Of a stretch of 64,000 bases of DNA, positions 26,179 through 62,958 are shown piece after piece. The first letter of the stretch is position 1, and each line of letters starts with the position of its first letter. The notes below the pieces were generated by a model, which had not been told where the DNA came from, made no database searches, and saw only the letters and a program-made list of their open reading frames with translations. The position numbers and the translations under genes were made by a program. Source of the stretch: Eledone cirrhosa (taxonomy: Eukaryota); NCBI GenBank assembly GCA_964016885.1, contig OZ024746.1, positions 75,702,001 to 75,766,000 on the forward strand. Reading direction: 5' to 3'.

Positions 26179-27571
26179 CTATTTCACTGTTTCTATTGCA
26201 TATATACAAAAATGTAAAAGTGGAGAAGTAGTTTTTAAAAATCGACACTAAAGTGAAACTTTATTCGTTTCAGCAATTTAGAAAAGCCAAGTTTGTTTTT
26301 TACATTATTCATTATCATTGGTTTCACGTTTTAATTACTCTTATATACTCATATACATGTCGAATTTTTTAGGTTAAATTTATGGTGTACTTTCAAAGGG
26401 CTGAAGTTTACAATATAACTTAAAATACTGTATCAGTAAGTAGAAGCCCAAAAGGACAAATGATTTTTTTTTTTTTTTTTAATGAATTACACCGATGTTT
26501 GCATGCCTCGACACAAATAAAACCACATAGATCTTAATAGTGTAGAAAAATTCATGTCCTCATCGTAACATTTATGTTCGGGATAGTACTTTGATTCATG
26601 AACGTTGATCTGTTCTTTTTGTAAAACTACGTTCGAATTTTACACGAGTATATACGATACTCTATCTTTCTCTAAATTGGTTTATAAATGTAATGCTATT
26701 TGCAAAAGGCTTGTTGCTAATTGTAGCTCTCCACATGTGTTAATGTAGTTACAAATAAATTACAATATTGCTCATCTAACTGTCGTCCTAGTTTTCATTC
26801 AATTTTTTTATGGCAAACACCGATCGCTCCTCAATAATGTGTATGAATGAACACTTGGATCAGCGCATTTAAGTCACAATTTCTTGTGTAAACAACATTT
26901 CATTTCCAAAGATCATCAGGTAGTTGTATAAAAAGTACATTTCGTTGTTTCCAATTCAGTGTTTTCACTTAACGCCTGAAAATTTAACTTTACTTTAAAT
27001 TCGAAAATAAGATTTAATAACGCACATCAAATGCTAGTCAAAAGCCTACTCTTTCAACCCTCCATTATTCTAGCTCTTATTAGTGGATGTTTAGTCTAAA
27101 ACGAAACTTCACTTCACTATATAATATAAACAAGTGAAATAATAAGCATGTACTGCTGTATTGAAATTTTAGTGTGTTTTAATGTTTCTTTAAAGAATAG
27201 TTGTTATTTACATATGAAGTGATAATTACTAATTAGTTCCAGAAAGTTGTCAAAATAAATGAAACGTTATAATCAACTGGTCTTTAACTGTGAGATATTG
27301 TTGAAATATATAATTCATTACACAACATATTTATATTTAATATCTAATATCTTTTATTATTTTATTTTATTCCAGGGTATGTTTCTGTTTGAAAAAGAAT
27401 TTTCTATAGAAGATGCTGTAAGCGTTGAAAGAATTATATTTACTTGCAAATGTCTTCGTAGAAAGTCTAAAGATTGTCTCAAGCTTGGAGGCTGATTAGG
27501 CCAATACTTGTCCTGGTTTCCTTGGTATTGGGTAATTAAGAATACAAGATTAAAATTATAAATTTCAGAAA

Positions 27572-29173
27572 ATGGGTAAACATAAATGTGATATTTGTGG
27601 AAAAATATTTCTTAAAAATTGTAAACTCCTTACTCATAAGCAGACTCATACAGGAGAAAAACCTTACCACTGTGAAATATGTGAAAAAAAATGTTCTACA
27701 AAAGGTAATTTAACGGTACACCAACGTACACACACTGGAGAGAAACCATACAACTGTGAGATATGTGGGAAAAAATACACTACAAAACATTCTCTAAGAG
27801 AACACAAAAGTTCTCACACTGAAAATTCATACTGCTGTGAAATATGTGGAAAAGTTCTCTCTTCAAAAAGATGTTTGAGGATACACAAACGTACACACAC
27901 AGGAGAAAGACCCTACTACTGTGAAATCTGTGGGAAATCATATACTGTAAAATCTTCTGTAATAATACACAAACGTACACACACTGGAGAAAAACTGCAC
28001 CACTGTGAAATATGTGGCAAAGCATGTTTTTCCGAATCTGTTTTAAAGGTACACAAACGTACTCACACTGGAGAAAAACCTCATCAATGTGAAATCTGTG
28101 GGAAAGCATTTTCTCTCCTTTGTAATTTAAAAAAACATAAATATACTCATACTGGAGAAAAGCCATACAAGTGCAATGATTGTGGTAAAGCTTTTTCTAA
28201 TATGACTGACTGTAAACATCATAGAGGTGTGCACACAAAACCATACAACTGTGAAATATGTGGGAATGTATTTTCTATAAAGGCTTCTTTAACAATACAC
28301 AAACGTACACATACTGGGGAGAAACCATTCCACTGTGATATATGTGAAAAAGCATTTACTGCAAGCGATGGTTTACGGAAACACAAACGAACTCACACTG
28401 GAGAGAAACCATATCACTGTGAAATCTGTGGCAAATCCTTTACTCAACCTGGTAATTTAACAAGACATAAACTTGTTCACATTGGGAAAAAAACATACAA
28501 GTGTGATGATTGTGGGAGATCTTTTTTTTATCAGAGTGAGTTACAATTCCACAAGGGTGTGCACACAAAACCATACGACTGTGAAATATGTGGAAAAGTA
28601 TTTGCTGTTAAATCTTCTTTGACAGTACACAAACGTACTCACACTGGAGAGAAACCATACCACTGTGAAATATGTGGGATACAATGTTTAAGCAGTGGCA
28701 GTTTACTAAGGCATAAACGTGTTCACACTGGGGAAAAACGACATCGCTGTGAAATATGTGGGAGAGCGTTTCCTGAAAAGTATGTTTTAACATTACATAA
28801 ACGTATTCACACTGGAGAAACTCCATATCACTGTGAGGTTTGTGACAAGAGATTTACAGATAAAAGTAGCTTAAGAGTACATGATCGTCTCCACACTGGG
28901 GAAAGACCACACCACTGTGAAATCTGTGGCAAATCATTTTCTCAAAATGGTACTTTAACAAGACACAAACGTACTCACACTGGAGAGAAACCATATAACT
29001 GTGAAATATGTGGGAAAATCTTTTCACATGCAACCACCTTAAAACAACATATACTTATTCACACACAAGAAAAACAATACAGCTGTGGTATTTGTGGGAA
29101 ATCATTTATCTGTAGAGGTTATTTATCTAAGCATAAACGTAAAGTTCATGATGGAAAGAAACCTTATCCCTGA
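27572..29173 (+). CDS. C2H2 zinc-finger array protein D (19 fingers), close paralogue of C
   Basis: 533-aa intact ORF colinear with C; acceptor TTCCAG ending 27375. Confidence 0.94.
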   Translation: MGKHKCDICGKIFLKNCKLLTHKQTHTGEKPYHCEICEKKCSTKGNLTVHQRTHTGEKPYNCEICGKKYTTKHSLREHKSSHTENSYCCEICGKVLSSKRCLRIHKRTHTGERPYYCEICGKSYTVKSSVIIHKRTHTGEKLHHCEICGKACFSESVLKVHKRTHTGEKPHQCEICGKAFSLLCNLKKHKYTHTGEKPYKCNDCGKAFSNMTDCKHHRGVHTKPYNCEICGNVFSIKASLTIHKRTHTGEKPFHCDICEKAFTASDGLRKHKRTHTGEKPYHCEICGKSFTQPGNLTRHKLVHIGKKTYKCDDCGRSFFYQSELQFHKGVHTKPYDCEICGKVFAVKSSLTVHKRTHTGEKPYHCEICGIQCLSSGSLLRHKRVHTGEKRHRCEICGRAFPEKYVLTLHKRIHTGETPYHCEVCDKRFTDKSSLRVHDRLHTGERPHHCEICGKSFSQNGTLTRHKRTHTGEKPYNCEICGKIFSHATTLKQHILIHTQEKQYSCGICGKSFICRGYLSKHKRKVHDGKKPYP

Positions 29174-33309: not shown

Positions 33310-34329
33310 TCAGTAGTAATATTTACCTCTATCATGAAACGCACGTTTATGATTAGATATATAAACACGACGAGTAAATCTCTTCCCACAAATATCACAG
33401 CTATATGGTTTTTCCCCCGTGTGAGTACAATAATGTACTATTAAACTGCTCTTATCTGAGAATGTTTTCCCACAAATTTCACAGTGGTGTGGTTTTTCCC
33501 CAGTATGAACACGATTGTGTCGTGCTAAGTTGCCACTCAATGAGAATTCTTTCCCACATATTTCACAGTGATATGGTTTCTCTCCAGTGTGAGTACGTTT
33601 ATGTTTTCTCAAGTCATAAAGAATTGAAAATTCTTTCCCACAAATTTCACAATAGTGTGGTTTCTCCCCAGTGTGCACACGTTTGTGTCTTTGAATTTGA
33701 CTGGTATTAGAAAAAGATTTGCCACAATAATCACACATGTACTTGTGAATATGTTTATGCCTTCTTAATTGACTTGATTGAGAAAATGATTTATCACATA
33801 TTTCACAATGATATGGTTTCTCTCCAGTGTGAGTATGCTTGTGTATCTTTATATATCCCTTATTAGAAAATGCTTTCCCACAGATTTCACAGTGGTGTGG
33901 TTTTTCTCCAGTATGGACACGTTTATGTCTTCTTAATTGGTCACTACTTTGAAATGCTTTCCCACAAATTTCACAATTGTATGGTCTTTCTCCAGTGTGA
34001 ATATATTTATGTCTTATTAAATGACTCATTTGAGAAAATGCAGTCCCACATATTTCACACTTGTGTGGTTTCTCTCCAGTATGAGTAAGTTTATGACGTC
34101 TTAAATTGGAGATTTTATAAAATGTTTTCTCGCATATGTCACAGTGGTATGGTTTTACTCCAGTGTGGGTACGTTTATGTCCAGTTAAAATACGTTTTGT
34201 AGAAAATGTTTTCCCACATATTTCACATTGGTATGGCTTTTCTGCAGCATGAATATGCATATGAACAGATAATTTACATTTTGTAGTAAGTATTTTCCCA
34301 CAAAAATCACATTGATAATGTTTACCCAT
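33310..34329 (-). CDS. C2H2 zinc-finger array protein E (12 fingers)
   Basis: 339-aa intact ORF; homologous acceptor near 34490. Confidence 0.92.
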   Translation of the reverse strand: MGKHYQCDFCGKILTTKCKLSVHMHIHAAEKPYQCEICGKTFSTKRILTGHKRTHTGVKPYHCDICEKTFYKISNLRRHKLTHTGEKPHKCEICGTAFSQMSHLIRHKYIHTGERPYNCEICGKAFQSSDQLRRHKRVHTGEKPHHCEICGKAFSNKGYIKIHKHTHTGEKPYHCEICDKSFSQSSQLRRHKHIHKYMCDYCGKSFSNTSQIQRHKRVHTGEKPHYCEICGKEFSILYDLRKHKRTHTGEKPYHCEICGKEFSLSGNLARHNRVHTGEKPHHCEICGKTFSDKSSLIVHYCTHTGEKPYSCDICGKRFTRRVYISNHKRAFHDRGKYYY

Positions 34330-35569
34330 TTCTGAAATATTCTTTCAACAATGAAACTTTAAATTTAAAATTTTACATGTTTACTCTTTTTTTATGAAGA
34401 TATTTGCAAGTAAAAATATCTCTCTCTCAACATTGTTGATGTTGACTTACACATCTTCTACTGAAAATTCTCCTTCAAACAGAAATGTCCTGAAATAAAA
34501 TAAAATATTAGATTACAGTTACTAGCGATTATTTAATGCAAAATATTTAACTGTTTATATTGTGTAATAGAAAAAATAGTGTTGTTTTTCTTATTTTTTT
34601 CTTATTAACTGGTGCTTTGTGACATATCGGACATAATATATAGGATGGAGTCAACATAATGGAAAGAATGCATCACACAGTAGTCATTCAATTTAAGGTG
34701 ACAGACACTAATAGTAATCTCCATTAAAAACAACCAGCAACATTCGGTAATAATTGTGAAATGAAAAACGAAAACAAAAATGATTGAAATCGAGTGATAT
34801 AATATCAAAGAAAATGAATAAAAAAAAGAAATTACGAGGCAGTAATGTCTAATATATTTCAAAAAGTGCATTACATTATTATGTTCATGACCAGTGTCGG
34901 CAAAATTCGTCAATTACACCAGCAAAAATCGCTGGAAGTATATGAGATCTTAAATCGAAAGATTACTGATCAACGACGATTTTTGTGTCAACAAACTAGT
35001 TGACATTACATAAACATAAATGACAAACAATAGTATACTGAAGAAAAGAATTATAGAGGAGGGGGTTAGTTAACCTTTTGTTTATGATCAATACTGGTGA
35101 CTTATGGATGAGGTCCACAACTTCATTGCTGTTATGTTAAAGTTGATGTATGTAGTAGTATCGAAGTATCAACGTAGCAAGCCCCTCGGTTCCGGGAGCC
35201 TTCGTGGATTTTGGTGTTGATTGAACGTTAGACAGTTCGCTCGCCACACTAAGATCAACTTAATATAACTAGCCCTCAGCCAGTAAAATAACGCAAGGTC
35301 GATGAGAAGAGGCCCAGTAGGCTTTTCCTTTGTACTTGGGCCGGCGTTAGATGGACGCCACTGTCAAACGACTCTCCATTTCATTTCAAATTATGCCTCT
35401 TTCTGTTAGGTATAGAAAACGACAGCATCAGCAATTAAAAAAAAACAATGGAAACTAAATTTCCTTGGTCCGATCTGATCGGCTCCTTTCCCTTTTTATT
35501 ACAATATTCTCTTGGCTGCATGATTAAATGGTTTCAATTTTTATTCAATAGTTGTAGTAGCCACAGCGA

Positions 35570-39465: not shown

Positions 39466-40332
39466 ACCTGTATGAATACGTTTAATAACTTACAAATTTT
39501 ACAATGATACTGTTTTAAGTACATACTTTTGTATTTTTGAAAGACACCTGCATTAGAAAAAGTGTTTACATTAACTTAACATTGGTATGGTTTTTTTCCC
39601 CAGTATGAGTACGTTTATGCACCTTTAAGCCAAAATTTCGAGAAAATGCTTTCCCACATATATCACAATGGTATGGTTTCTCCCCAGTGTGTGTACGTAT
39701 ATGATTTGTTAAATAATTTTTTTTAGAAAATGCTTGTCCACATATTTCACAGTGGTATGGCTTTTCACCAGTGTGTATACGTTTATGATTTGTTAAATCA
39801 TTTTTTTGAGAAAATGCTTTACCACATATTTCACAGTGGTGTGGTTTTTCCTCAGTGTGAGTACGTTTGTGTCTTATTAAATTGGCAAACTCTTTCCCAC
39901 AGATATCACAGTGATCTGGTTTTTTGACATTGTGAATACGCCTATGTTTTGTCAAAAGATCATTTCGTGAAAATGCTTTACCACACATTTCACAGTGATA
40001 TAGTGTTTCTCCAGTGTGTATATGATAATGTCTTATTAAATGGTAATTAAGTGAAAATGATTTCCCACATATTTCACAGTGGTGTGATTTTTCTCTAGTG
40101 TGAGTACGTTTGTGCAATGTTAAAAACTGTTTCACATAAAATACTTTCCCACATATCTCACAGTTATGTAGTTTCTCTCTAGTGTGAATACGTTTGTGTC
40201 TTATTAAATAGTTTTCTACAGAAAATGGTTTCCCACATATTTCACAATGATATGTTTTTATCCTTGTATCATTACACCTATACATCATGTAGTATTTTCT
40301 CACAAATGTCACAATTGTAACGTTTTCCCACT
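39466..40332 (-). pseudogene. Decayed C2H2 zinc-finger gene F (8 fingers still open)
   Basis: Family start context TTTCAG-(A)nATG reads TTCTCAG-A-GTG; first finger (GKRYNCDICEK) out of frame; 3-aa deletion in finger 5; frameshift at the C-terminus followed by decayed fingers. Confidence 0.75.
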
Positions 40333-41067
40333 CTGAGAAATTAAAATTTCCAACTTGAAATTTTACAATTTTACTCTTTCGTTTTATGAAGACATTTACA
40401 AGTAAATAAATTTCTCTCTCAACATTGTTGACTTACAGCATCTGTTACAGAAAATTCTCTTTCAAACAGAAATATATCCTGAAATAAAATAAAATAATAT
40501 GTTAGATATTAAATAAGTTGTGTAATGTGTGGTGCATGAGGATGTAGAAAGTTAGATTTTTGGGTTTAAGACTTCTTATTAAAAAGAATTGTTTCCTGCT
40601 AAAATGTTAAACATTAGTCTTACACAAGAATACAGAGAAAATAACTGTTAGAATATTTATTATATTGTATAGAACTTATAAGCTGAAAATATATAAAAAA
40701 GTAGAGATATAGATATGCGTGTGTAAGTCTAGACTATTCAGTGTATGTGTGTATGTTACAAAACAACAAAACTATTTAGACATGTTATAGTTCATTGTCT
40801 AAATAACAAAGAATCGTGTAGCCTAAATGTATAAACTAGCTTAAGATGTACAAAATTTAGACCATGGATAACAACAGTAATAATTCTTAAAACCTAATAT
40901 ATTCATGTAGTAGCAGCTCAAATAATATCTTATTACAAATAGACACACATGACTTAATTAATTATTTATAGAATGAATTATTACAGAACATTTTTTAAAC
41001 ATTGATAAATACATTTATGATATTCTTAATCTCTCATATATGTAAATAATTTACCACAAATATCTCA

Positions 41068-42840
41068 CCATGAGAGACTAATGAATGTGGAGAACGAATG
41101 CGACAGAGAGGAATTACCCCCAGTAGACCCAACAGAGGGACCAGCTATTGAGATTGCCGAATATAGGGTACAAGAGGCAATTAAAGAAATGAAGAATGGT
41201 AAGGGTGCTGGAGTGTCGGGGATAGTTGCTGAGATGCTGAAGGCATCAGGGGACGTAGGCATTAAACTGGTTGCACACATCATCAATCAAGCTATATATG
41301 GTGGTGTCATACCCAAAGACTGGTGCAGCAGTATTCTCATAAATTGCTACAAAGGTAAAGGGGATGCTCTGGAGAGGAGCAATTATAGGGGCATAAAGCT
41401 GATGGATCAGGTTTTGAAAGTGGCAGAGAGAATATTAACGCAACTGATTAGAGAAAGAGTCAAATTAGATGAGATGCAGTTTGGTTCTGTGCCTCGGAAA
41501 AGTACAACAGATGCACTCTTCTTAGTGAGTCAACTACAAGAGAGGTTCTTAGAGAAGAATAAGCCACTATACTTAGCTTTTGTTGACCTAGAGAAGGCAT
41601 TTGATAGAGTACCCCGATCTGTCATCTGGTGGACCCTAAGGAAACTAGGTGTAGAGGAATGGCTTGTGAGGACAGTGAAAGCTATGTACAGGGGTCAATA
41701 AAGTGAGAGTAGGTATGGAGTTTAGTGAGGAATTCCAGATACAAGTAGGTGTACATCAGGGTTCGGTCCTCAGCTCGCTCTTGTTCATTATAGTCCTTTA
41801 AGCCATAACAGAGGAGTTTAGGACTGGCTGTCCATGGGAACTTCTCTATGCTGACGATCTGGTTCTTATAGCAGAATCAGTAGAGGAGCTGGAGAATAAA
41901 TTCTGGCTATGGAAACAGCAGTTGGAATCAAGAGGACTGAGAGTGAACATAGCTAAGACAAAAGTGCTGATGAGTAGAAGAGAGGACAATACTCCGATTC
42001 CATCAGGGAAATGGCCATGTTTGATATGTAGGAAAGGAACTGGCATAAATTCCATAAAATGTATGCAATGCAGATCTTGGATACACAAGAGATGTAGTGG
42101 GATAGCAGGCAAACTAACAGGTAGAGAAAACTATGTATGCAGTAGATGTACAAGAAAAGTTGGCAGTAGTAATCGCAGTGATAGACACATTTTTCAAATG
42201 CAGGTGGGTTCTATAGAAGTCGTTGATAGCTTCCGGTACCTAGGTGATCAGATTAGCATGGGAGGGGGGAGGTCCGAGACCATAGTATTTAGAATAAGGA
42301 TGGGTTGGAAGAAGTTTAGGGAGCTGCTTCCTCTGTTGACAAAGAAGGGCTTCTCTCTGCGTACAAAATGACGGTTATATGATGCCTGTGTGAGATGCGT
42401 GATGCTGCACGGTAGTGAGACATGGGCAGCAACTGCAGAGGATATGCGACGGCTGGAGAGAAATGAAGCAAGTATGCTCCGTTGGATGTGCAATGTCAAT
42501 GTGCGTGAACGACCAAGAATAGACGAGTTGAGAAAGAAACTGGGTATAAGAGGGATAAGTTGTGGTGTGCAGGAGAGAAGGCTGAGATGGTATGGACATG
42601 TGATGCGCATGGAGGATGACCGCTGGGTAAAGAAGTGCCAAGAAATCCCAGTAGAAGGAAGACGCAGTAGAGGTAGACCACAAAAAACATGGGCGGAGGT
42701 GGTGAGAACAGACCTCAGATCGCTGAAACTCACCGAGGAGATGACGATGGACCGTGACAAGTGGAGAGATGCTGTGCTGAAAAGGACCCGTCCAACCCTT
42801 GCAAGCAGGGAAAAGCGGACGTAAAATGATGATGATGATG
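41068..42840 (+). mobile_element. 5'-truncated RTE-clade LINE (RT, PHD-like Cys finger, C-terminal domain, (GAT)n tail)
   Basis: NYRGIKL, QFG, AFVDLEKAFDRV, YADD and FRYLG motifs over ORFs 41081-42824 with stops/frameshift; ATCTCA repeated at 41062-41067 and 42841-42846. Confidence 0.92.
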
Positions 42841-42926
42841 ATCTCAGATCTATAGTTTTACTCACATGTGAATAAGTTTATGTGCAGATAGGTTGCAAAT
42901 TTTAGAAAATGTCTTCCCCACAAAAC

Positions 42927-43329
<403 letters not shown>

Positions 43330-44280
43330 TCAGTGATATGGCTTCTTTCGAGTGTGAATACGCCAGTGTCTTTTTAAAGTACTATTTTCAGAAAATGCCT
43401 TGCCACAAATTTCACAATGATATGGTTTTTCACCTGTGTGCGTACGTGTGTGTTTGACTAAACTACATCTATCTGAAAATTCTTTTCCACAAACCCTACA
43501 ATGATATGGTTTCTCTCCAGTGTGAATACGTTTGTGTAATTTTAGAACATATTTTTCAGGAAATGCTTTCCCACATATTTCACAGTGGTGTTTTTTTTCT
43601 CCAGTATGTACGCGTTTATGTCTTAGTAAACTCTGTCTACTTGAATATTGTTTCTCACATATTTCACAAGGATATGGTTTTTCTCCAGTGTGAGTATGTT
43701 TGTGTATTATTAAAGACTCTTTTACAGAAAATGCTTTCTTACATATTTCACAGTGGTATGGTTTTAAGTGTACACCTCTGTGGTTTTCACAGCCAGTTAC
43801 ACTAGAAAAAGCTTTGCCACAAACATCACACTTGTATGGTTTTTCTCCAGTGTGTATACGTTTATGTCTTGCTAAATTACCAAGTTGAGAAAATAGTTTC
43901 CCACAGATTTTACAGTGGTATTGCTGTTCTCCAGTGTGAACAAGTTTATGACTTCTTAAACTAAAAATGTAAGAAAATGCTCTGCCACATATTTCACAGT
44001 GATACGGTTTCTCTCCCGTGTGAGTACGTTGGTGTATCTTTATATAACTTTTATTAGAAAAAGCTTTCCCACAAATCTCACAGTGATATGGTTTATCTCC
44101 AGTGTGTGTACGCTTGTGTTCCGTTAAATAAGCTTTTACAGAAAATGATTTTTCACATATTTCACAGTGGTATGGTTTTTCTCCTGTATGGGTGCACTCG
44201 TGAATAGACAAATTACATTTTGTAGAAAGTATTTTCCCGCAAATATTACATTTGCAATGTTTTTTTGTTTTATGAAACAT
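43330..44280 (-). CDS. C2H2 zinc-finger protein G (11 fingers), truncated duplicate of H; may be a pseudogene
   Basis: 316-aa ORF with 20 aa differences from H over the shared length; ends at a 2-nt deletion CAC TGT GAA to CAC TGA. Confidence 0.7.
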   Translation of the reverse strand: MFHKTKKHCKCNICGKILSTKCNLSIHECTHTGEKPYHCEICEKSFSVKAYLTEHKRTHTGDKPYHCEICGKAFSNKSYIKIHQRTHTGEKPYHCEICGRAFSYIFSLRSHKLVHTGEQQYHCKICGKLFSQLGNLARHKRIHTGEKPYKCDVCGKAFSSVTGCENHRGVHLKPYHCEICKKAFSVKESLIIHKHTHTGEKPYPCEICEKQYSSRQSLLRHKRVHTGEKKHHCEICGKAFPEKYVLKLHKRIHTGEKPYHCRVCGKEFSDRCSLVKHTRTHTGEKPYHCEICGKAFSENSTLKRHWRIHTRKKPYH

Positions 44281-46874
44281 TTAAGCAATGGAACTTCAGG
44301 AAGATATTTGCAATTAAATAAATCTCTCTCTCTCAACACTGTTAACTTACAGCATGTCCTACAGAAAATCTTCCTTCAAACTGAAATACATCCTGAAATA
44401 AAATAAAATAAATATTAGATGCTTAATATCAATATATTGTGTAATGTGGTACACCTTAACATTTCACAGTTGTCATACTCAAAGACTAGTGGATCATGAT
44501 ATTTATCTGTTTGCAATGTTCAGTTTCCAAGAATTGATTATCACTTCCCATGAAAACAACAACTCATTCATAAATATCAAAATATGCATATTTTACCAAT
44601 TATCTTATTTACAGATTATAACCAGTCATATCTAGGTAAATAGGAGAGCTTAATGAAACAGAACTGGTCTTGTAAAAGTCAGCTCTCAATGAAATATGTA
44701 TATCTCTTTAAATATATGGTATGAACATGTGATGCGTATGAAGGAGGACAGCCATATAGAAAGGTGCAGGGTGCTCAAAGTTGATGGAAGCTATGGAGTA
44801 GGAAGACCTAAGAAGACTTGGGATGACCTTGTACAATTGCACCTTTTAAAATTGACGACATACAATCGAGATCTCTGGCATTATACAGTAATACACAAGA
44901 CTCACCTTCCTATGTGCACGGGTTGAAGCATTTTTTTGGTATGCACCACCAAAGCATGGAAAAATGGACGTTTAACAGTGACGACGATGATGTATATTTA
45001 TATATATGTATGGCGTCAAATCTATGTGCTAGAAATAGAAGTAAATTCTCACCCCATTTTTCCATTTTCAGAAAATAAGTTGACAGCTTGACGAGGGTCA
45101 GATTACTTGAAAACAGATGAAAGATCTTAATTATTATAAATTTTATATATATACATATATATATCAATTTGATTAAAATAACAGGATGCCAGACAAGTGA
45201 TAGCCCGTTAACCCTTTAGCCTTTAAACCAGCCATATCCAGCCAGAATTCTCCCACCCCTTTCTGTTTAAACTAGCCATAACCGGCTACTCATACTTATA
45301 TTAAGGTATTGCTCTCAAAATCTCATAGCTTCAGTATTATGTGAGATAATTCTGTGAAATAAAGTGTTTACTCTGAGTCACTTGACCTCACAACACATCT
45401 AACCTATGCGTGGAAAAATAGACATTAAATGATGATGTTTATATATATATAATATCAGTCCATACTGACATTTTATTATATATACTTACATATGATCCTC
45501 AGTCCATATTCAGTTCCCTAATCAAAATATATAAAATATTAATGTATACAGTATTTACTTATGTATAAGTCCACTTATAATGTGACCATTGCTTTCTTTC
45601 ATAGATCAATACTGGTAGGCTTAAATTCATCATAATCATTTTACCTCTACTTTCCATGCTGGCAGAGGTTATTTCAGTCCTTGGTAAAATTTTAAGACAT
45701 AATTATTAACAAATAAATATCATTAATTAAACAAATTATTTGTTTCTTTGTTTTTGTACATGGTCACACAAAATTATTAATAGAATCAAGATTTGTAGAT
45801 ACATTTGCTTTTATTCAAAACTGAGTGATTTGCTTGTGGCAGTAACCATACTAGAAAGCTCCTTTGCACTGGGCCTCCCTGCTACATAGTCTAGTTTCTT
45901 TCTTTTTGTTCCTTTCAAAATGAATAAATCATCATCCACTAAAGTTTTGCTTGTGGTTAATTCTCTTGTGTGTCAGATATCATATATTTTATATCGGAGT
46001 GCACCTACTTATGTTTAATGGCTTTCTTGGGCAATCTTGTTAGTGGGTCAATCGGTGGTGTGTGTGTGTTCCTAAAATGTTTTTTTCTTTGCATAGTTTA
46101 AAGAGTCAGTTTGTGATTAGATATGGTGTTCGATACTTATCTGTCCGGATATTTTATGTGGTGGCTTCAAGTAGTATTGAGAAGAAAAGAAGGTGGAGGA
46201 GGAAATTTTGCAGTGTTTTCATTGGCTTTAGTTCCTGATAACTTTTTTAATAATGCATATTTTTAAATGAAATTTTACAGAAACATTTTCGAAGGTGTGT
46301 TTAATTTTAATTATTACATTTAAAAAATACTTTCATTATTTTACATTTGTAAGTAGGCTAAACATAAACTCGAAAATTTGTTTATCATGCCTTATAATTT
46401 CATATTATAGATCTTCTATAAGAACGCAATATCATTTCTACAATAATGAATTCCAGAATATATATTGATGAATCATAATCTACACCTTCGGAAATGTATC
46501 TCTGCAAAAAATTCATGATAAAATATGCATTAAGTAACAAATATGGTGTGAGAGGCACTAGACAAGTAATGCCGCAAAAGTTACCTAGCACCAGGTACGC
46601 ACATGATATAACTATCCTTCATGACAACCAATAATTTCTGCCGTTCTTGCAAAACTTATATTGTGGACATGCATTATAGGATAAACATATACATAGCTAA
46701 GTTCAAGCAGGAAAAGTCAATATCTCAGTGATGTAAACATGTGCGAACGAAGATACATGCAAAGTTGAGACAGGAACCCACTGTCTAATTCTTCATTTAT
46801 ACAAGGTATTTGTATATATTTTAAGTTGCTTAAATAGTGAGCAAAATATATTGAAGTGTAAAATCAATCGATCC

Positions 46875-46913
<39 letters not shown>

Positions 46914-47407
46914 ATAACAAGTAGGGACAAGGTGTCAAATTATCATTAAGTTCATTCAGGTGTGACACACGTTTCGCGATTGATCAGATCAAGATTCGAA
47001 CTCTATTGATCGGGCTCGATTCTGTAATCAAAAACTCATCTGACTTCTGTTTGCTTACATATGTATGTGTGCTCTTGTAACATTAGTACACGAGTAAGCA
47101 TTCGCGAATCTTATAGTTGCAGTTAATTAGTTACATGTAAGTGCTCTTCCTGTAGCAACAGAAAAAATCTAGGGTCTTGAAGGCAGGCCAAAAGAGCGTA
47201 CATATACTATTATGGTTAACCAACAATACCTAAGAATGTATGTATACTAACCCCTGCAAACATTCTTAGGTTATTAAATATCAACACATACTTAAGCCCA
47301 TACCACTGATACGTCTCAGCTCATCTACGATGAGGAACTTTGCATATATAAACAGCAGTTAACTATTAACATCAATATACATATATCATCATATATATAT
47401 ATATATA

Positions 47408-47680
47408 TCATCATCATCATCATCATCATCAGCATCGTTTAACGTCCATCTTCCACGCTTGCATGGGTTTGGACGGGAGTTTTCCCACTTGAGGCAAGAG
47501 TGGTTGGCTTGCTCGCATAGGACTGTCTAGCAGGTTTTCTACGGCTGGATGCCCTTCCTAACACCAACCACATTTACAGTGTGGACTGGGAGGTTTTTAC
47601 CGTGTTACCTACACGGCCACATTACAGCGTGGACTGTGTGGTTTTTTGTCGTGACACCTACACGACCTCATTTGTTTCAG
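47408..47680 (-). mobile_element. SINE 3' half with RTE-type tail
   Basis: Highly similar to the arms of 20673-21346; (CAT)n tail. Confidence 0.8.
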
Positions 47681-47824
47681 ACTGGATGTTCTGGTACCAA
47701 CATAACTTTACATTGAAAGGGGTGGTGTGGATGCGGTGGGGGTAGTGGGACGGGGGTGTATTTTTGTTAGAGGTGTCTACTGACTGTAGTAGGTTTCACT
47801 TTGTACTTAGGTAAGGCGGGTCTT

Positions 47825-49000
47825 CTGTAGCGCCAAAGATCTCGGTCCAGTGACATTGTCTTGGAGAGGCGTAAGTGTGTGAGGTCGGAATTTATCAAGT
47901 CGTCCCAGGTTTTTCTGGGTCTACCTACTCCGTGGCTACCATCTATTTTTATTGCCCTGCACTTTTTTATACAGCTGTCGTCTTTCATGCGCATCACGTG
48001 ACCGTACCAACGTAGTCTTCTCTCGAGTAAACAACATCTGATCCCTCTTATTTCTAATTTTTCCCTTAGTTGGTTTATGCTTTGCCGTTCACGTATATTA
48101 CTATTACACATCCAGCGGAGCATGGAAGCTTCGTTCCTCTCCAGTCTGCGTATATCCTCTGCACACAATGCCTAGGTCTCACTGCCATGTAACATTGCTG
48201 TTCGTATGCAGGCATCATACAGCCTGCCTTTCATTTTTAGAGAGAACCCTTTAGCGGCTAATAGTGGTATAAGCTCTCTGAACTTTTTCCATCCAGTTCT
48301 GACTCTAGCTACTGTACTTTCAGAGCACCCTCCACCACTGCTGATTTTGTCACCCAAGTAACGGAAGGTGTCGACTATTTCTATAGAACCATCTGTGCAA
48401 TGGAATGAGCTAGTATTCTGTGGGCACTTGCTGCTACTTATTGCACCAGAGCACCGGCCACATATAAAATCTATATTCTTAGTTAGCTTACCTGTGATCC
48501 CACTACATCTTTTATGAACACATACTTTGCATTTGGGACATAAAATGGAGTTTCTGCCTACTCCTTTCCTACACACTGAGCATGGCCATTTCCCGGATGG
48601 GACCGGTGCCCTATTTTCCTTCCTACAAACTAGAACTTTAGTCTTAGACAGGTTAATTTTAAGGCCTTTTGAGTCTAGGTCATGCTTCCACGTTTGGAAT
48701 TTCTTTTCTACTTCAGCCATTGATTCAGCTATGAGCGTTAGATCATCTACGTATAGGAGTTCCCATGGGCAGCCGGTCTTGAACTCCTCTGTTATAGCCT
48801 GAAGGGCAATAATAAATAGTAGGTGGCTAAGAACGGAGCCCTGATGAACACCAACTTTTACGCTAAACTCTTCACTATATTCGTTGTTAATTCTAACCTT
48901 GCTGACTGTTTCTTTATACATGGCTTGTATAGCTCTCACAAGCCATTCATCAACACCTTCGACTAACACTGCTGGTCCCTCTATTGGATCGATGTGGGGA
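47825..49000 (-). mobile_element. RTE LINE fragment with internal deletion; absent from the duplicate copy
   Basis: ORFs 48172-49056 and 47767-48168: GVHQGSVLS, YVDD, WPCSVC..HKRC, FRYLG; PIEGPA joined directly to GVDEWLV. Confidence 0.88.
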
Positions 49001-49006
49001 TATATG

Positions 49007-49042
<36 letters not shown>

Positions 49043-49126
49043 ATTGCCTCAAACAACTCGATTAGTACTTGCTATATGGAGGCTACAACTTCAATTCATA
49101 CCCAATATTATATACATATATATATA

Positions 49127-50256
49127 CAGGGTGCGGACGGTATTTGAGGGCAGATTTATGGTTTTAAAAAAATGCTTATATAATAACAGAAAAAAACTGT
49201 CGTCTTATAAAAATAACATAAACATAAAGCTAAATTATCAATTTAATAATTTCATTCAATAAAACCACCATAAGCATCAACATGGGGTCGAAATTGTTTG
49301 CAAAGTCGGATTAAGTGGTCCTTGTTCATATCGGACATGACTCGAATTATGGCGGCTTTCAAAGAATCTTTGGTGCTATGGGGGTGTTTATTGACATTTT
49401 TCTCAACGATGCTCCATACATAGTCCAGTGCATTGAGATCTGGAGAATTAGGAGTCCAAATGTTGGGGGGTGATGTGATCATGCAAATTGTCAGCCATCC
49501 ATTCTTGTGTCATTTGAGCCTTGTGTGATGGTGCAGAATTTTGTTGAAAGTCATAAGGCCTTCCATTTCATACACTGTTGATCTAAGGCTTAACAACTTT
49601 ATCCAAAACCTCAATATATGCAGCAGCATTCACCCTTAAGGCCTTGTGGAAAAAAGTGAGAAGGCATCACATGTCCTTCATTACTAACAACACCCAAAAC
49701 CATGACACTTGCAGAAGGGTCTGCACATAGCCATCTGTCATTTCTTCTATTAGTTTTGTGGCCCTGGTCAAAATTTTTCTCATCTCAGAAAAACCAAATC
49801 ATACCATCTTCTGATGGATTTTTAAGTTTGTTTAAAAGTGTTTTGCATCTGATTAAACGCTTTCTTTTCTTTTTTTCTGACATTCTTTTCATCACATAAG
49901 ATTTGTATCTGATGTCTTTATGCACAACATTTCTGATTGTTTTTTCTGACACACCAACATTTTTTGCAATTGACCTCATTCATTTTCCTGGATTGTCATC
50001 AATGTTTTGCTTAACTTCCTGAATAAATTTAGGTGTCCTGATAGAATCAGAGCGTTTGGAATGTTTTTTACGTTTTGATACAGGTAATACGCTTCCATCT
50101 TCTTTCTCTAATTCACACTGAATCTTGTGGACAAAAGATCTTGCAACTTTCAGAAAACGACAAGCACAACATACCTTTTCATTTCATTAGTAAGCATAGT
50201 TATTTTCTGAAATGGAAGTTCAATAAAAATTACATGTGTCCTCAAATACCGTCCAC

Positions 50257-56439: not shown

Positions 56440-56568
56440 GCTTAGATTGATTCCTCAATGTGAACCTTCTCGTGTTTTGTTAATGAAATATTTCTAGAAA
56501 ATTCTTTCCCCCAAATATCACATTTGTATGGTTTTTCCTCAGTATGACTATATAAATGAATTCAAAGC
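56440..56568 (-). pseudogene. Last 1.5 fingers of an inverted paralogue of the 53647-54075 relic
   Basis: Reverse complement reads [33 protein letters not shown]; 3' flank also homologous. Confidence 0.75.
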
Positions 56569-56585
56569 TCCCGAGCTCTAACAAA

Positions 56586-57666
56586 GGACTCCAGATACAA
56601 GTAGGTGCACATCAGGGTTCGGTCCTCAGCCTGCTCATATTCATTATAGTCCTCCAAGCCATAACATAGGAGTTTAAGACTGGATGCCCATGGGAACTTC
56701 TCTATGCTGATGATCTGGTTCTTATAGCAGAATAAGTAGAGGAGCTAGAGAATAAATGGAAACAGCAGTTGGAATCAAGAGGACTGAGAGTGAACATAGC
56801 TAAGACAAAATTGCTGATGAGTAGAAGAGAGGACAATACTCCGATTCCATCAGGGAAATGGCCATGTTTGATATGTAGGAAAGGAACTGGCATAAATACC
56901 ATAAAATATACACAATGCAGATCTTGGGTACACAAGATATGTAGTGGGATAGCAGGCAAACTAACAGGTAGGGAAAACTACGTATGCAGTAGATGTACAA
57001 GGAAAGTTGGCAGTAGTAATCGCAGTGATAGACACATTTTTCCAATGGAGGTGGGTTCTATAGAAGTGGTTGATAGCTTCTGGTATCTAGGTGATCATAT
57101 TAACATGGGAGGGGAGGGGGGTTCCGAGGCGATAGTATCTAGAATAAGGACAGGTTGGAAGAAGTTTAGGGAGCTGCTTTCTCTTGACAAAGAAGGGCTT
57201 CTCTCTGCGTACGAAAGGACGGTTATATGATGCCTGTGTGAGATGCGTGATGCTGCATGGTAGTGAGACATGGGGAGTAGCTGCAGAGGATATGCGACGG
57301 CTGGAGAGAAATGAAGCAAGTATGCTCCGTTGGATGTGTGTGTACGACCAAGCATAGATGAGTTGAGAAAGAAACTGGGTATAAGAGGGATAAGTTGTGG
57401 TGTGCAGGAGAGAAGGCTGAGATGGTATGGACATGTGATGCGCATGGAGGATGACCGCTGGGTAAAAAAGTGCCAAGAAATCCCAGTAGAAGGAAGACAC
57501 AGTAGAGGTAGACCACGAAAACATGGGCGGAGGTGGTGAGAACAGACCTCAGATCGCTGAAACTCACCGAGGAGATGACGATGGACCGTGACAGATAGTG
57601 TGCTGAATATGACCCGTCCAACCCTTGCAAGCAGGGAAAAGCGGACGTAAAATGATGATGATGATG
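56586..57666 (+). mobile_element. Duplicate of the RTE LINE at 41068-42840, cut at the duplication breakpoint
   Basis: Aligns to 41729-42840 and has the same 3' junction. Confidence 0.9.
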
Positions 57667-57752
57667 ATCTCAGATCTATAGTTTTACTCACATGTGAATA
57701 AGTTTATATGCAGATAGGTTGCAAATTTTAGAAAATGTATTCCCCACAAAAC

Positions 57753-59123
57753 TCAGTGGTCAGGTTTGTTTCCATCATTAACAATACATTTATGAGTTGA
57801 TTTAGAATCACTACGAGCAAATGATTTCCCACAAATAACACAGCTGTATGGTTTTTCCCCAGTGTGAGTACGTTTATGCCTTATTACACACCTTAAACTA
57901 GAGAATGTTTTGCCACAGATATCACAATGTAGTTTTTTCCCAGTATGAATACCTTTATGTGCAAATAAGATACCACTAGTTGAAAATTTCTTTCCACAGA
58001 TTTCACAGTGATATGGCTTCTTTCCAGTGTGTGTACGTTTGTGGACTGTTAAAATACCTTTTCTAGAAAATGCGTTCCCACATATATCACAATGGTGTGG
58101 TCTTTCCCCAGTGTGAACATGTTTATGTATTATTAAGGTGGTTTTATGTGAAAATTCTTTCCCACAAACTTCACAGTGATATGGTTTCTCTCCAGTGTGA
58201 ATACGCCAGTGTCTTTTTAAAGTACTATTTTCAGAAAATGCCTTGCCACAAATTTCACAATGATATGGTTTTTCACCAGTGTGCGTACGTGTGTGTTTGA
58301 CTAAACTACATCTATCTGAAAATTCCTTTCCACAAACCCTACAATGATATGGTTTCTCTCCAGTGTGAATACGTTTGTGTAATTTTAGAACATATTTTTC
58401 AGGAAATGCTTTCCCACATATTTCACAGTGGTGTTTTTTTTCTCCAGTATGTACACGTTTATGTCTTAGTAAACTCTGTCTACTTGAATATTGTTTCTCA
58501 CATATTTCACAAGGATATGGTTTTTCTCCAGTGTGAGTACGTTTGTGTACTATTAAAGACTCTTTTACAGAAAATGCTTTCTTACATATTTCACAGTGGT
58601 ATGGTTTTAAGTGTACACCTCTGTGTTGTTCACAGCCAGTTACATGAGAAAAAGCTTTGCCACAAACATCACACTTGTATGGTTTTTCTCCAGTGTGTGT
58701 ACGTTTATGTCTTGCTAAATTACAAAGTTGAGAAAATAGTTTCCCACAGATTTTACAGTGGTATGGCTTTTCTCCAGTGTGAATAAGTTTATGACTTCTT
58801 AAAGTAAGAATCATCGAAAATGTTCTGCCACATATTTCACAGTGATACGGTTTCTCTCCCGTGTGAGTACGTTGGTGTATCTTTATATAACTTTTAGTAG
58901 AAAAAGCTTTCCCACAAATCTCACAGTGATATGGTTTATCTCCAGTGTGTGTACGCTTGTGTTCCGTTAAATAAGCTTTTACAGAAAATGATTTTTCACA
59001 TATTTCACAGTGGTATGGTTTTTCTCCTGTATGGGTGCACTCGTGAATAGACAAATTACATTTTGTAGTAAGTATTTTCCCGCAAATATTACATTTGTAA
59101 CGTTTTTTTGTTTTCTGAAACAT
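57753..59123 (-). CDS. C2H2 zinc-finger array protein H (16 fingers), colinear with A and G
   Basis: 456-aa intact ORF; homologous acceptor near 59233. Confidence 0.9.
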
Positions 59124-60672
59124 TTTAGCAATGGAACTTCAGGAAGATATTCTAGGAAGATAAATCTCTCTCCTAACACTGTTAACTTACAGCATGTCCT
59201 ACAGAAAATCTTCCTTCAAACTGAAATATATCCTGAAATAAAATAAAATAAATATTAGATGCTTAATATCAATATATTGTGTAACGTGGTACACCTTAAC
59301 ATTTCACAGTTGTCATACTCAAAGACTAGTGGATCATGATATTTATCTGTTTGCAATGTTCAGTTTCCAAGAATTGATTATCACTTCCCATGAAAACAAC
59401 AACTCATTCATAAATATCAAAATATGCATATTTTACCAATTATCTTATTTACAGATTATAACCAGTCATATCTAGGTAAATAGGAGAGCTTAATGAAACA
59501 GAACTGGTCTTGTAAAAGTCAGCTCTCAATGAAATATGTATATCTCTTTAAATATATGGTATGAACATGTGATGCGTATGAAGGAGGACAGCCATATAGA
59601 AAGGTGCAGGGTGCTCAAAGTTGATGGAAGCTATGGAGTAGGAAGACCTAAGAAGACTTGGGATGACCTTGTATAATTGCACCTTTTAAAATTGACCACA
59701 TACAATCGAGATCTCTGGCATTATACAGTAATACACAAGACCCACTTTCCTATGTGCACGGGTTGAAGCATTTTTTTGGTATGCACCACCATCCCCACCA
59801 TACACCTCATATATCCTAACACTTCACCTCACCCTAGATCTACCTCTCCAATCCCCACACACTACTTCCCAGTCCACACTGTAAAGTGGTCATTTTGGTG
59901 TCACAATAAAAAGCACCCAGTACATACTGTAAATCTGGTTGGTTTTAAAGAGGGCATCTAGTCGTAGAAACCAAACCCAAATCAATTCCGTTTGAGTAAG
60001 ACATGGTCATCTGATCTGGTTAGTCTCACAACAGGACAACTTGTCTAATAGCATGGAAAAATGGACGTTTAACAGTGACGACGATGATGTATATTTATAT
60101 ATATGTATGGAGTTCAAATCTATGTGCTAGAAATAGAAGTAAATTCTCACCCCATTTTTCCATTTTCAGAAAATAAGTTGACAGGTTGACGAGGGTCAGA
60201 TTACTTGAAAACAGATGAAAGATCTTAATTATTATAAATTTTATATATATACATATATATATCAATTTGATTAAAATAACAGGATGCCAGACAAGTGATA
60301 GCCCGTTAACCCTTTAGCATTTAAACCAGCCATATCCAACCAGAATTCTCTGTTTAAACTAGCCATAACCGGCTGCTCATACTTATGTTACGGTATTGCT
60401 CTCAAAATCTCATAGCTTCAATATTATGTGAGATAATTCTGTGAAATAAAGTGTTTACTGTGAAAATACAAAAGTAAATATAGAATAATGTAAATGCTAA
60501 TGGTTTTATTGTTGCAAAAAAAAACTATATATATTTCAATTTACTCTTAATTATTTTTTTTCACTTATTTAACAGGCCATTCAACACAACTTTCATTACT
60601 TTTTATAAATTTTTGTTTAATCTGTTTGTGTTTATCGTAATTTCTTTTATTGATTAACTAGTTATGCAATCT

Positions 60673-60730
60673 GCACCTGATGATGTTGCCAGGATCTTAT
60701 GTAACTAGGCCATTGAAATATATATAGTGT
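60673..60730 (+). ncRNA. Degenerate minimal hammerhead in a Penelope-like remnant
   Basis: GCAC-CTGATGA-(imperfect stem II)-GAAA-TATATA-TA-GTGT; 60712-60748 recurs inverted at 60502-60540. Confidence 0.5.
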
Positions 60731-61087
60731 TTTTTGAAACAATAAAACTTTAAAGGGGTATCTCCAGTTCGGCCTCCTGTTGTTTTAATCAATAAATATT
60801 TAACTCCGTTCCAGCACCAGCCATGAGAGTCAACATCAATGATGACAAGTTGCGTAACAGAGTGCTTCTCCTACTATTACATTATGGTTAACTAAACAGA
60901 ATGACCATTGGTGAACCACAAAACATAAATGTATATATTTATATATGAATATATATATATATATATATATAGCAGTAATAGGTAAGTAAAAATCCAAGGT
61001 GTAGAGCAATTCAAGTATGTAGGGCGAGTTTGAATGTAATTATTCTGATTTGTTACTACAAGAGTGCCATACCAGATACGTATATTT

Positions 61088-61495
61088 CGTTGGTCATTGA
61101 TGACCAACTTGTTCAACCTGTGCCAATGAAAATGAACCGTGTTTACTCATATTGGTGAAAAAAGAAGAGTCAAACCAAGGCCTGGAAATCATGTAATGAT
61201 GAAAAGTGGTGATATTGAATAATCTCCACAATATCAATACACTTAACAAACAAGCACCCAGTCAATCCTGTTATATGGTCATTTTGTGCCACAATAAAAA
61301 GCCTTTTTTCACTAATATGGTTGGCATTTGGAAGGGCATCAAGTTAAAATACAGATCTGTCTCCCTTACACCATCTAGATTATCTGCTCTTGGTTTGACT
61401 ATCTTCGCTTACTTTTTTTTTGCCACCATGAGTAAACATTTTCCAGTTCATTTTCATCAGCACAGGTTCAACAAGTTGGTCATCAATGACTAACG
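61088..61495. mobile_element. MITE-like element with ~90-bp inverted arms and an internal SINE fragment
   Basis: CGTTGGTCATTGATGACCAACTTGTTCAACCTGTG / CACAGGTTCAACAAGTTGGTCATCAATGACTAACG. Confidence 0.65.
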
Positions 61496-62958
61496 GACGT
61501 AGTCACTTGACCTCACAACACATCTAACCTATGCAAGGGTGGAAAAATAGACATTAAATGATGATGATGATTATATATATAATATCAGTCCATATTCAGT
61601 TCCCTAATCAAAATATATAAAATATTAATGTATACAGTATTTACTTATGTATAAGTCCACTTATAATGTGACCATTGCTTTCTTTCATAGATCAATACTG
61701 GTAGGCTTAAATTCATCATAATCATTTTACTTCTACTTTCCATGCTGGCAGAGGTTATTTCAGTCCTTGGTAAAATTTTAAGACATAATTATTAACAAAT
61801 AAATATCATTAATTAAACAAATTATTTGTTTCTTTGTTTTTGTACATGGTCACACAAAAATATTAATAGAATCAAGATTTGTAGATACATTTGCTTTTAT
61901 TCAAAACTGAGTGATTTGCTTGTGGCAGTAACCATACTAGAAAGCTCCTTTGCACTGGGCCTCCCTGCTACATAGTCTAGTTTCTTTCTTTTTGTTCCTT
62001 TCAAAATGAATAAATCATCATCCACTAAAGTTTTGCTTGTGGTTAATTCTCTTGTGTGTCAGATATCATATATTTTATATCGGAGTGCACCTACTTATGT
62101 TTAATGGCTTTCTTGGGCAATCTTGTTAGTGGGTCAATCGGTGGTGTGTGTGTTCCTAAAATGTTTTTTTCTTTGCATAGTTTAAAGAGTCAGTTTGTGA
62201 TTAGATATGGTGTTCGATACTTATCTGTCCGGATATTTTATGTGGTGGCTTCAAGTAGTATTGAGAAGAAAAGAAGGTGGAGGAGGAAATTTTGCAGTGT
62301 TTTCATTGGCTTTAGTTCCTGATAACTTTTTTAATAATGCATATTTTTAAATGAAATTTTACAGAAACATTTTCGAAGGTGTGTTTAATTTTAATTATTA
62401 CATTTAAAAAATACTTTCATTATTTTACATTTGTAAGTAGGCTAAACATAAACTCGAAAATTTGTTTATCATGCCTTATAATTTCATATTATAGATCTTC
62501 TATAAGAACGCAATATCATTTCTACAATAATGAATTCCAGAATATATATTGATGAATCATAATCTACACCTTCGGAAATGTATCTCTGCAAAAAATTCAT
62601 GATAAAATATGCATTAAGTAACAAATATGGTGTGAGAGGCACTAGACAAGTAAAGCCGCAAAAGTTACCTAGCACCAGGTACGCACATGATATAACTATC
62701 CTTCATGACAACCAATAATTTCCGCCGTTCTTGCAAAACTTATATTGTGGACATGCATTATAGGATAAACATATACATAGCTAAGTTCAAGCAGGAAAAG
62801 TCAATATCTCAGTGATGTAAACATGTGCGAACGAAGATACATGCAAAGTTGAGACAGGAACCCACTGTCTAATTCTTCATTTATACAAGGTATTTGTATA
62901 TATTTTAAGTTGCTTAAATAGTGAGCAAAATATATTGAAGTGTAAAATCAATCGATAC

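Follow-up and report, generated by a model that had tools for sequence, protein, structure and literature searches.

Contact-residue divergence between two young tandem C2H2 zinc-finger genes of Eledone cirrhosa, one intact and one truncated

The window analysed here, a stretch of 64 kb (75702001-75766000 of its contig) in an AT-rich and retroelement-rich genome, contains eight open frames with tandem C2H2 fingers, which we named A to H after the list of open reading frames. Paralogue A (3985-5349, minus strand) has 16 fingers and 89% nucleotide identity to G, and it served as the outgroup for polarising changes. B (11039-12409, minus strand), C (17979-19640, plus strand), D (27554-29173, plus strand), E (33310-34344, minus strand) and F (39566-40432, minus strand) are further tandem C2H2 finger frames. 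G (43330-44280, minus strand) is a 316-codon frame with 11 canonical C2H2 fingers, as judged from the frame list, Pfam and the finger motif, and its stop codon is made by a 2-bp deletion. H (57753-59123, minus strand) is an intact 456-codon frame, open to 59138; of its 16 fingers the last is a variant and the other 15 are canonical. The architecture of H is that of paralogue A, i.e., the ancestral number of 16 fingers.

G and H lie in the two copies of a tandem segmental duplication, delimited by self-BLAST blocks. Copy 1, which carries G (41734-49538, no strand assigned), comprises a retroelement fragment, the zinc-finger exon and upstream DNA, and copy 2, which carries H (56590-64000, no strand assigned), reaches the end of the window. 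The identities of the blocks range from 92.7 to 99.3%, namely 94.97% (3239 columns), 95.06% (425), 99.27% (1906) and 92.70% (548), and neutral divergence is 0.3% to 3.9% depending on the block, with 6 mismatches per 1906 columns in the 1.9-kb block. Among the 113 matches to G listed from the 3.0-Gb assembly, the best were G itself, H (97%), A (89%) and B, C and D (77-78%), all others being at 73% or below. This genome-wide ranking (H 97%, A 89%, next at most 78%) therefore identifies G and H as sisters and A as their nearest outgroup. The two copies stand in tandem with no closer genome copy among the matches listed, as expected of a recent, lineage-specific duplication in a physical cluster. 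A homologue search with H gave no orthologue among the 8000 candidates listed, which were filled by generic vertebrate ZNFs of at most 54% identity. Directly 3' of the zinc-finger gene, each copy of the duplication also carries a retroelement fragment with RT and PHD parts, and the nearest named relatives of this local RT-PHD retroelement are found in Octopus vulgaris (61% identity) and Hydractinia (54%).

Both genes encode Krueppel-type C2H2 fingers (C-X2-C-X12-H-X3-H), with 11 by motif in G and 15 canonical ones in H, and the translations contain TGEKP-type linkers, two of which are damaged in G. The Pfam scores of G are 252 bits for zf-H2C2_2 (cutoff 40) and 163 bits for zf-C2H2 (cutoff 25.2), and those of H are 367 and 205 bits, respectively. 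Finger 6 has a short non-canonical linker that is common to A, B, C, D, G and H. KRAB (PF01352) had no match in the G and H frames, nor did Pfam return anything else of substance there beyond zf-C2H2 and zf-H2C2_2, and the 26 sense-strand frames of at least 40 aa in the 3.2-4.4 kb upstream of G and H gave 0 Pfam matches at E<=0.01. SET was absent from the G and H frames and from these 26 upstream frames, which sets the pair apart from PRDM9-like genes. Within G and H the off-diagonal, finger-to-finger nucleotide identity is about 70-75%, and because the fingers are only this similar, neither gene is a minisatellite-like array evolving by unequal exchange.

In H, the open frame extends no more than five codons beyond the ATG on the 5' side. 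A YAG stands directly before the start codon in A, B, C, D and E; it is also present in H, and G has AT there. The ancestral ATG has been lost in both G and H, the start used being four codons upstream. Judging from these motifs, the H/Q difference between the two genes at codon 3 may affect a splice site or the leader, and not the protein. One contig of read set X3 (44196-44354) is colinear through the start codon of G and the upstream GTAAGT, but it is not decisive for the gene structure of H because in G the conserved AG is replaced by AT.

Four sets of public reads from one study (X1, X2 and X4 from one sample, X3 from another) each contain both G-specific and H-specific contigs, and the differences between the genes are therefore real. 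In X3, the G-specific contigs are 43892-44010 and 44196-44354, and the H-specific contigs are 58555-58714, 58735-58853 and 58824-59068. Several unique non-coding bins with cover in X1, X2 and X4 have none in X3; we suspect that X3 is a transcriptome, and gaps in its cover carry no weight.

G and H (the latter from the ATG at 59123) can be aligned codon by codon without gaps over the 316 codons from the shared ATG. The first-pass annotation of this DNA had reported 20 amino acid differences over this length, 8 of them at the helix positions -1, +2, +3 or +6, and the codon alignment reproduces these counts exactly. All eight contact differences are as listed there: N/T at -1 of finger 3 (F3), Y/M at -1, F/L at +2 and S/T at +3 of F4, G/C at +2 of F5, S/H at -1 and N/Q at +6 of F6, and I/V at +6 of F7 (G/H in each case). 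The statement that contact positions make up about 14% of the residues also agrees with our count of 44 out of 316 (13.9%), against which 8 out of 20 differences give a hypergeometric p=0.0026, and so does the remark on codons that need 2-3 nucleotide changes (Y/M needs 3, S/H 2 and N/Q 2). At the nucleotide level, 29 out of 948 nt differ, 24 in amino-acid-changing codons and 5 synonymously. The stretch that had been flagged, i.e., fingers 3-7 of G (43690-44060, minus strand), contains all 8 contact-residue differences, and 19 of the 29 nucleotide differences of the 948-nt frame fall in 43697-44054.

Other parts of the earlier description needed amendment. Fingers 8-11, described as near identical, have 0 amino acid differences within the fingers, but there are 2 in the last linker. 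The adjoining DNA, a putative intron described in the same terms, has only 7 mismatches in about 617 nt at 44335-44951, but 44309-44334 is a dense patch of differences. G and H had moreover been treated symmetrically; the counts stand, but it had been missed that the frame of G ends after finger 11, whereas H continues for 5 fingers.

Zinc ligands, hydrophobic core and linkers are, to our knowledge, constrained in every C2H2 family, and a uniform null is therefore wrong for contact enrichment. The first-pass annotation had regarded further paralogue pairs as a check on its claim, and within the cluster the other pairs are enriched as well: 30 of the 82 differences of A-H fall at 60 of 453 contact positions (p=8e-10), 23 of the 80 of C-D at 72 of 539 (p=5e-5), and B-C, B-D and A-B behave likewise. 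The long-branch omegas of a fixed-sites model (contact 0.85, rest 0.23), combined with Nei-Gojobori site counts, predict that a share of 0.375 of the replacements falls at contact positions, and the 8 out of 20 of G-H do not exceed it (p=0.49). The view that the enrichment by itself marks diversifying selection is thus not supported, the observed share being the family-wide expectation. Enrichment alone reflects that contact residues are the fastest class, and it is no sign of positive selection by itself.

Contact positions were also compared with positions +1 and +5 of the helix, where no base is contacted. The contrast is present in G-H (8/44 vs 0/22, p=0.031) and in A-H (30/60 vs 7/30, p=0.013), and absent from C-D (23/72 vs 12/36, p=0.64). 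Outside the window, we screened 22 finger-rich open frames at 20 loci elsewhere in the genome. In the young pair L014-L028, 0/68 contact codons were changed, with 3 replacements elsewhere (pS 1.9%), and in the young pair L015-L025, which is in two pieces, 0/72 were changed, with 15 replacements elsewhere (pS 1.1-5.1%). A plain lack of constraint on helix-coding DNA, or hypermutability there, would therefore not fit; some young pairs do not let their contact residues drift freely, and G-H is conspicuous among them. The older pair L013-L017 (pS 0.28) has changes in 60/104 contact codons and a maximum likelihood (ML) contact omega of 1.08 (p=0.66), the ML contact omega of C-D is 0.87 (p=0.57), and that of the A branch is 0.85. 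An omega of about 1 on older branches is compatible with episodic change, and it is equally predicted in the long term if contact residues evolve neutrally.

Contact-position enrichment is informative only when set against a neutral rate and split by lineage. In Nei-Gojobori counting of site classes, the contact pN of G-H is 12/107.7 = 11.1%, as compared to 1.8% for other codons and 5/184.8 = 2.7% for all synonymous sites. The synonymous differences between G and H number 5 only, which leaves few neutral markers in the frame. The neighbouring non-coding or dead DNA of the duplication differs at 89/2267 = 3.9%, and the figure for all non-coding blocks combined is 115/5146 = 2.2%. The contact pN is above the 3.9% of the flank (one-sided Fisher p=0.0017) and above the 2.2% of all non-coding blocks (p=9e-6); when clustered changes were collapsed to events, contact against flank gave p=0.017.

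Lineage assignment was by parsimony with A as the single outgroup, which is weak at fast sites. Among the 29 nucleotide differences, 16 are G-derived, 8 are H-derived and 5 are ambiguous, 4 of these 5 being in the finger-4 helix. The G lineage has 12 replacement and 4 synonymous changes; 3 of the 12 are at contact codons, which is not an enrichment (p=0.23), and the other replacements are spread along the gene, several of them in linkers. On the H lineage, the first 948 nt have 8 changes: 1 is synonymous, and of the 7 that fall in replacement codons, 5 are at contact codons. All 8 of these H-derived changes lie within 274 nt, in fingers 4-7 (58550-58823, minus strand), and a range-scan gives p=0.001 for this clustering of 8 changes and 0.003 for 7 events. 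Over the whole of H, 6 of the 9 amino-acid-changing codons are contact codons (F4 -1, F5 +2, F6 -1, F6 +6, F7 +6 and F14 +6), a class that comprises 64 of the 456 codons (p=4e-4). Non-contact residues of H are conserved: the rate of the G lineage, 24/1367 = 1.76%, would have led to 16.6 replacements, and there are 3 (p=6e-5). The contact changes of H number 6 to 10 vs 2.75 expected, the p value running from 0.06 to 6e-4 with the assignment of the ambiguous sites. By parsimony, F6 -1 (AAT in A, AGT in G, CAT in H) and F6 +6 (AAA in A, AAC in G, CAA in H) changed on both lineages. Conversion of H by A was considered as a source of the sites scored as G-derived and was rejected, since these sites are isolated, whereas A is about 11% diverged from both genes, and have no flanking tract where H equals A.

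Relative to H, 2 bp are deleted from G after 43333, which places a stop behind finger 11, and the sequence of fingers 12-16 persists as an out-of-frame remnant (42880-43329, minus strand) with 2-bp, 11-bp, 3-bp and 1-bp deletions after 43333, 43258, 43139 and 43063, respectively. The remnant also carries 8 G-derived substitutions, one of which turns a zinc-ligand His codon into Asp. These lesions are seen in a DNA-read contig of X4 (43022-43380) that is colinear with 0 gaps. With its 2-bp, 11-bp and 1-bp deletions and premature stop, G has the frame lesions of an unprocessed pseudogene, and within the remaining frame two TGEKP linkers have become TGEQQ and TRKKP. The first 948 nt of G have 0 indels. 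As a sign of constraint, this lack of indels is significant only against the gene's own dead 3' part (p=2e-4) and not significant against flank rates by a rough count, and thus gives no ground for constraint on G. It is likely that G has lost its function and is decaying neutrally.

Codon likelihoods were obtained with our own GY94-type model on the tree of G, H and A, with the contact partition set a priori. For the whole tree, one omega is rejected in favour of two (p=1e-8), and the contact omega of 1.27 is not above 1 (p=0.38). For the G and H branches together, the contact omega is 3.4 vs 0.57 for the rest (LRT against 1, p=0.018). Under a clock constraint, H has a contact omega of 4.2 and 0.20 for the rest (contact >1, p=0.035), and when the finger-4 codons 101-107 are left out, its contact omega is 3.1 (p=0.15). 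For G, the clock model gives an omega of 0.95 outside the contact positions and 2.6 at them, which does not depart significantly from neutrality (p=0.48) on the basis of only 16 derived changes. Overall, codon likelihood support for a contact omega above 1 is borderline. The first-pass annotation had proposed rapid retargeting by selection, and this proposal keeps the support of the contact pN above flank and the young-branch omega of 3.4, but the signal is that of the H lineage only, and the likelihood test is no longer significant without the finger-4 patch. Diversifying selection on G is not borne out, G being truncated by frameshift and fitting neutrality.

The finger-4 helix patch of G (43961-43980, minus strand; H counterpart 58804-58823) has 8 differences from H in 20 nt, 4 of them consecutive, and it has the look of an imported tract. 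Both finger-4 versions occur in X3 contigs (43892-44010 and 58735-58853, with 0 other letters each), and because both are present in public reads they are not assembly errors. A reading of the patch as a 6-8-nt shifted alignment with compensating indels was dropped, one shared hexamer being its sole basis. The first-pass annotation had offered conversion of a patch from other paralogues as a source. When the 33-nt finger-4 patch was compared with the window (G and H masked) and the 20 other-cluster loci, the best match had 7 mismatches for the G version and 10 for the H version, and genome-wide 24-nt scans allowing up to 2 mismatches gave only the patches themselves and one chance-level hit (a control pattern gave 2). 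An extant donor is therefore not supported by the cluster and genome-wide scans for tracts of more than about 12 nt.

Clustered changes are found nearby as well. Shortly before the start codon of G, a non-coding patch (44309-44334, minus strand) has 11 mismatches and a 3-nt indel relative to H 59152-59174, from which it follows that clustered multi-nucleotide replacement happens here without protein-level selection, and the frameshift site of G combines 3 substitutions and the 2-bp deletion in an interval of 18 nt. In C and D, the 3' halves, i.e., the last ~7 finger units, are nearly identical; together with the G/H block of 6 mismatches in 1906 columns, this indicates that conversion is active in the cluster. 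A complex mutation is therefore a live alternative for finger 4, and complex mutation events inflate omega tests.

Our tentative reading, to which we would give slightly less than an even chance, takes H to have acquired a new target through selection on fingers 4-7 and G to be its truncated, decaying sister. A young tandem duplication gave rise to G and H, C2H2 poly-zinc-finger genes in which no KRAB was found; selection for a new DNA target would then have driven changes of H at the base-contacting helix residues of fingers 4-7, and frameshifts cost G its fingers 12-16, likely followed by neutral decay. We infer from the rates that the contact excess came from positive selection after duplication (neofunctionalisation) and not from clustered mutation. 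Selection on H is likely, though not proven. By analogy with characterised C2H2 fingers, the contact residues would set DNA specificity here too, and one may conjecture from related systems that the target of H is a transposable element.

The same counts could have arisen with no positive selection at all, if contact residues are merely the least constrained class (omega near 1), G is decaying, and sampling noise plus one finger-4 complex mutation supplied the rest. This would account for the contact omegas of 0.85-1.08 in the three older comparisons (A branch, C-D and L013-L017), for the agreement of 8/20 with the expected share of 0.375 (p=0.49), for the fit of G to neutrality (p=0.48) and for the loss of significance in the LRT once the finger-4 patch is removed (p=0.15). 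It sits poorly with a contact pN of 11.1% above a flank of 3.9% (p=0.0017, or 0.017 by events), with the contact changes of H outnumbering its synonymous and non-contact ones (6/9, p=4e-4), and with the 0/68 and 0/72 of the two young pairs, which argue that contact residues are normally constrained at such an age. We regard this neutral account, the strongest competitor, as somewhat unlikely. It is improbable, in our assessment, that a patch import explains the data, either by micro gene conversion or by a template-switch or multi-nucleotide mutation, with no selection on individual substitutions. The 8 differences in 20 nt of finger 4, 4 of them consecutive, the comparably dense patch in non-coding 44309-44334, the mosaic of 0.3% to 3.9% over the duplication and the C/D 3' halves, nearly identical over about 7 finger units as conversion would leave them, are all in keeping with such an event. 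However, the best donor match has 7 (G) or 10 (H) mismatches over 33 nt in the window and 20 loci, the genome-wide 24-nt scan (up to 2 mismatches) returns the patches themselves and one chance-level hit, and the differences in fingers 5-7 are isolated single codons.

The symmetric reading, in which G and H are both functional and were both retargeted by diversifying selection, is very unlikely. The contact omega of G has a point estimate of 2.6, F6 -1 and F6 +6 changed on both lineages, and the first 948 nt of G are without an indel. But G lost five fingers by frameshift and shows more indels and the loss of a zinc ligand downstream, its non-contact omega is 0.95, its linkers are damaged (TGEQQ, TRKKP), and its contact share of 3/12 is not enriched.

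In arms races between KRAB-ZFPs and retroelements, such as those of ZNF91 and ZNF93 reportedly described by Jacobs et al. in 2014, a duplicate gains new contact residues and hence a new target, and in PRDM9 the contact positions evolve rapidly. The mechanism proposed here is like the former and the rapid contact change is like the latter, but no KRAB domain was found here, and neither PR/SET nor KRAB was found in G and H. The analogy with KRAB-ZFPs and PRDM9 drawn in the first-pass annotation thus holds for the mode of evolution but not for membership. Albertin et al. reportedly described C2H2 expansions in cephalopods in 2015. The locus resembles the cephalopod C2H2 expansions as described in the available part of PMC12513265, with large C2H2 gene clusters in an AT-rich and retroelement-rich genome; in that part of the text 'positive selection' has 0 occurrences, and it offers no direct comparison for contact-residue selection.

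Judging from the accessible portion of Emerson and Thomas 2009 (PMC2604467), positive selection in recently duplicated poly-ZF genes is centred on positions -1, 3 and 6, the finger number varies among paralogues, and gene conversion was checked. As in the genes described there, G and H are recent tandem duplicates in one cluster, their finger number differs (16 vs 11), and changes fall at the helix specificity residues, with structural residues and linkers conserved. Unlike the genes in that portion of the paper, G and H have no detected KRAB, SCAN or BTB, one partner looks to be decaying rather than diversifying, and there is one pair with one outgroup, for which the test of omega >1 is borderline. 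The sections of Wells et al. 2023 (PMC10547256) at hand describe positive selection at -1, 3 and 6 likewise in recent duplicates among the zebrafish FiNZ genes, in several metazoans, octopus among them, high entropy at the positions that contact bases, and a transposon-driven or transposon-conflict model for metazoan ZNFs. Like FiNZ as presented in those sections, the present genes form a tandem ZNF family without KRAB, in which residues that contact bases rank among the most variable and retroelement fragments lie around the genes; unlike FiNZ, no N-terminal associated domain was detected in G and H.

That young poly-ZF paralogues diverge at specificity residues is a pattern known since 2009, and G/H is a new, modest instance in which KRAB was not found. 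Because the pattern has long been documented and the evidence is borderline, the pair adds an example and not a principle. It is possible, though in our judgement rather doubtful, that a family of zinc fingers only, with no recognisable effector domain, goes through the same cycle of duplication and retargeting as vertebrate KRAB-ZFPs. With every tandem duplication, one copy would be selected to a new target, plausibly a young retroelement, within about 1.8% neutral divergence per lineage, and its sister would be shed by truncation, with bursts (G-H) and stasis (the other young pairs) averaging to an omega near 1 on older branches. If selection on H is real, this would be a very young (~3% diverged) change of specificity in a zinc-finger family lacking KRAB. 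The ancestor, the retargeted daughter and the decaying sister would then all be readable in one 64-kb window, which would make the locus a convenient system for ZNF turnover outside vertebrates, in the sense of the transposon-conflict model as set out in the available sections of Wells et al. 2023 (PMC10547256).

Among the eight open frames of tandem C2H2 fingers in the window, C (17979-19640) and D (27554-29173) form a mosaic. Their first 12 finger units carry 1-24 nucleotide differences per 28 codons, whereas the last approximately 7 units carry just 0-4 over the same length. In addition, a block of approximately 61 amino acids spanning two fingers is the same, without a single difference, in B (11039-12409), C and D. 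Taken together, the C/D mosaic and the block common to all three suggest that gene conversion has taken place between these members of the cluster.

The segmental duplication carrying the young sister copies G and H also contains an unusually similar stretch. Self-BLAST of the window aligned a 1.9-kb non-coding block at 45499-47398 to 61585-63488 with 6 mismatches in 1906 columns; the adjoining blocks of the duplication are 2-4% divergent. The 1.9-kb block has the look of a tract that was recently converted or homogenised, or else of a strongly conserved element, and the sense ORFs within it had no Pfam matches. Close to one end of G, 18 nucleotides (43333-43350) hold both its 2-bp frameshifting deletion and three substitutions, a cluster that looks like a single complex mutational event.

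The surroundings of the start codon were compared in G (44260-44400), H (59100-59240) and the DNA upstream of A-E. In each of A to E, a YAG lies immediately 5' of the start codon; H has the YAG as well, but G has AT at this place. The ancestral ATG is gone from both G and H, with an ATG four codons upstream as the replacement start, and a GTAAGT lies another approximately 70 nucleotides upstream. Finger 6 (43770-43830 in G, and its counterparts in A, B, C, D and H) is atypical in all six arrays: helix position +4 is Cys and not Leu, and the linker that follows is shortened to H-LKPY-x-C or H-TKPY-x-C. This finger may divide the array into two putative binding modules.

Four public read runs were compared on 41700-49200 and 56500-64000. 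The run X3, from a different sample than the other three, gave contigs on the finger exons of both G and H, and none on several unique non-coding bins of these two intervals that the other three runs cover. X3, whose kind is not on record, may be a transcriptome. Pfam identified fragments of a retroelement in which a PHD finger follows the reverse transcriptase, at 41030-42877 (+), 48172-49071 (-) and 56736-57703, and the closest named proteins in the homologue search belong to Octopus vulgaris (61%) and to Hydractinia (54%). The family is very abundant, since read contigs stack on these fragments to depths of tens to hundreds of thousands. A TA-rich simple repeat of approximately 1.2 kb (21346-22559) can be read in three frames as long open frames of Y/I.

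Elsewhere in the genome, the zinc-finger locus L015 (C18:8461786-8465676) and L025/L027 (C28:126871428-126875771) form an inter-chromosomal gene pair with 99.0-99.5% identity, in which the C28 copy is divided between two open frames. They may represent a further duplicate with one partner broken.
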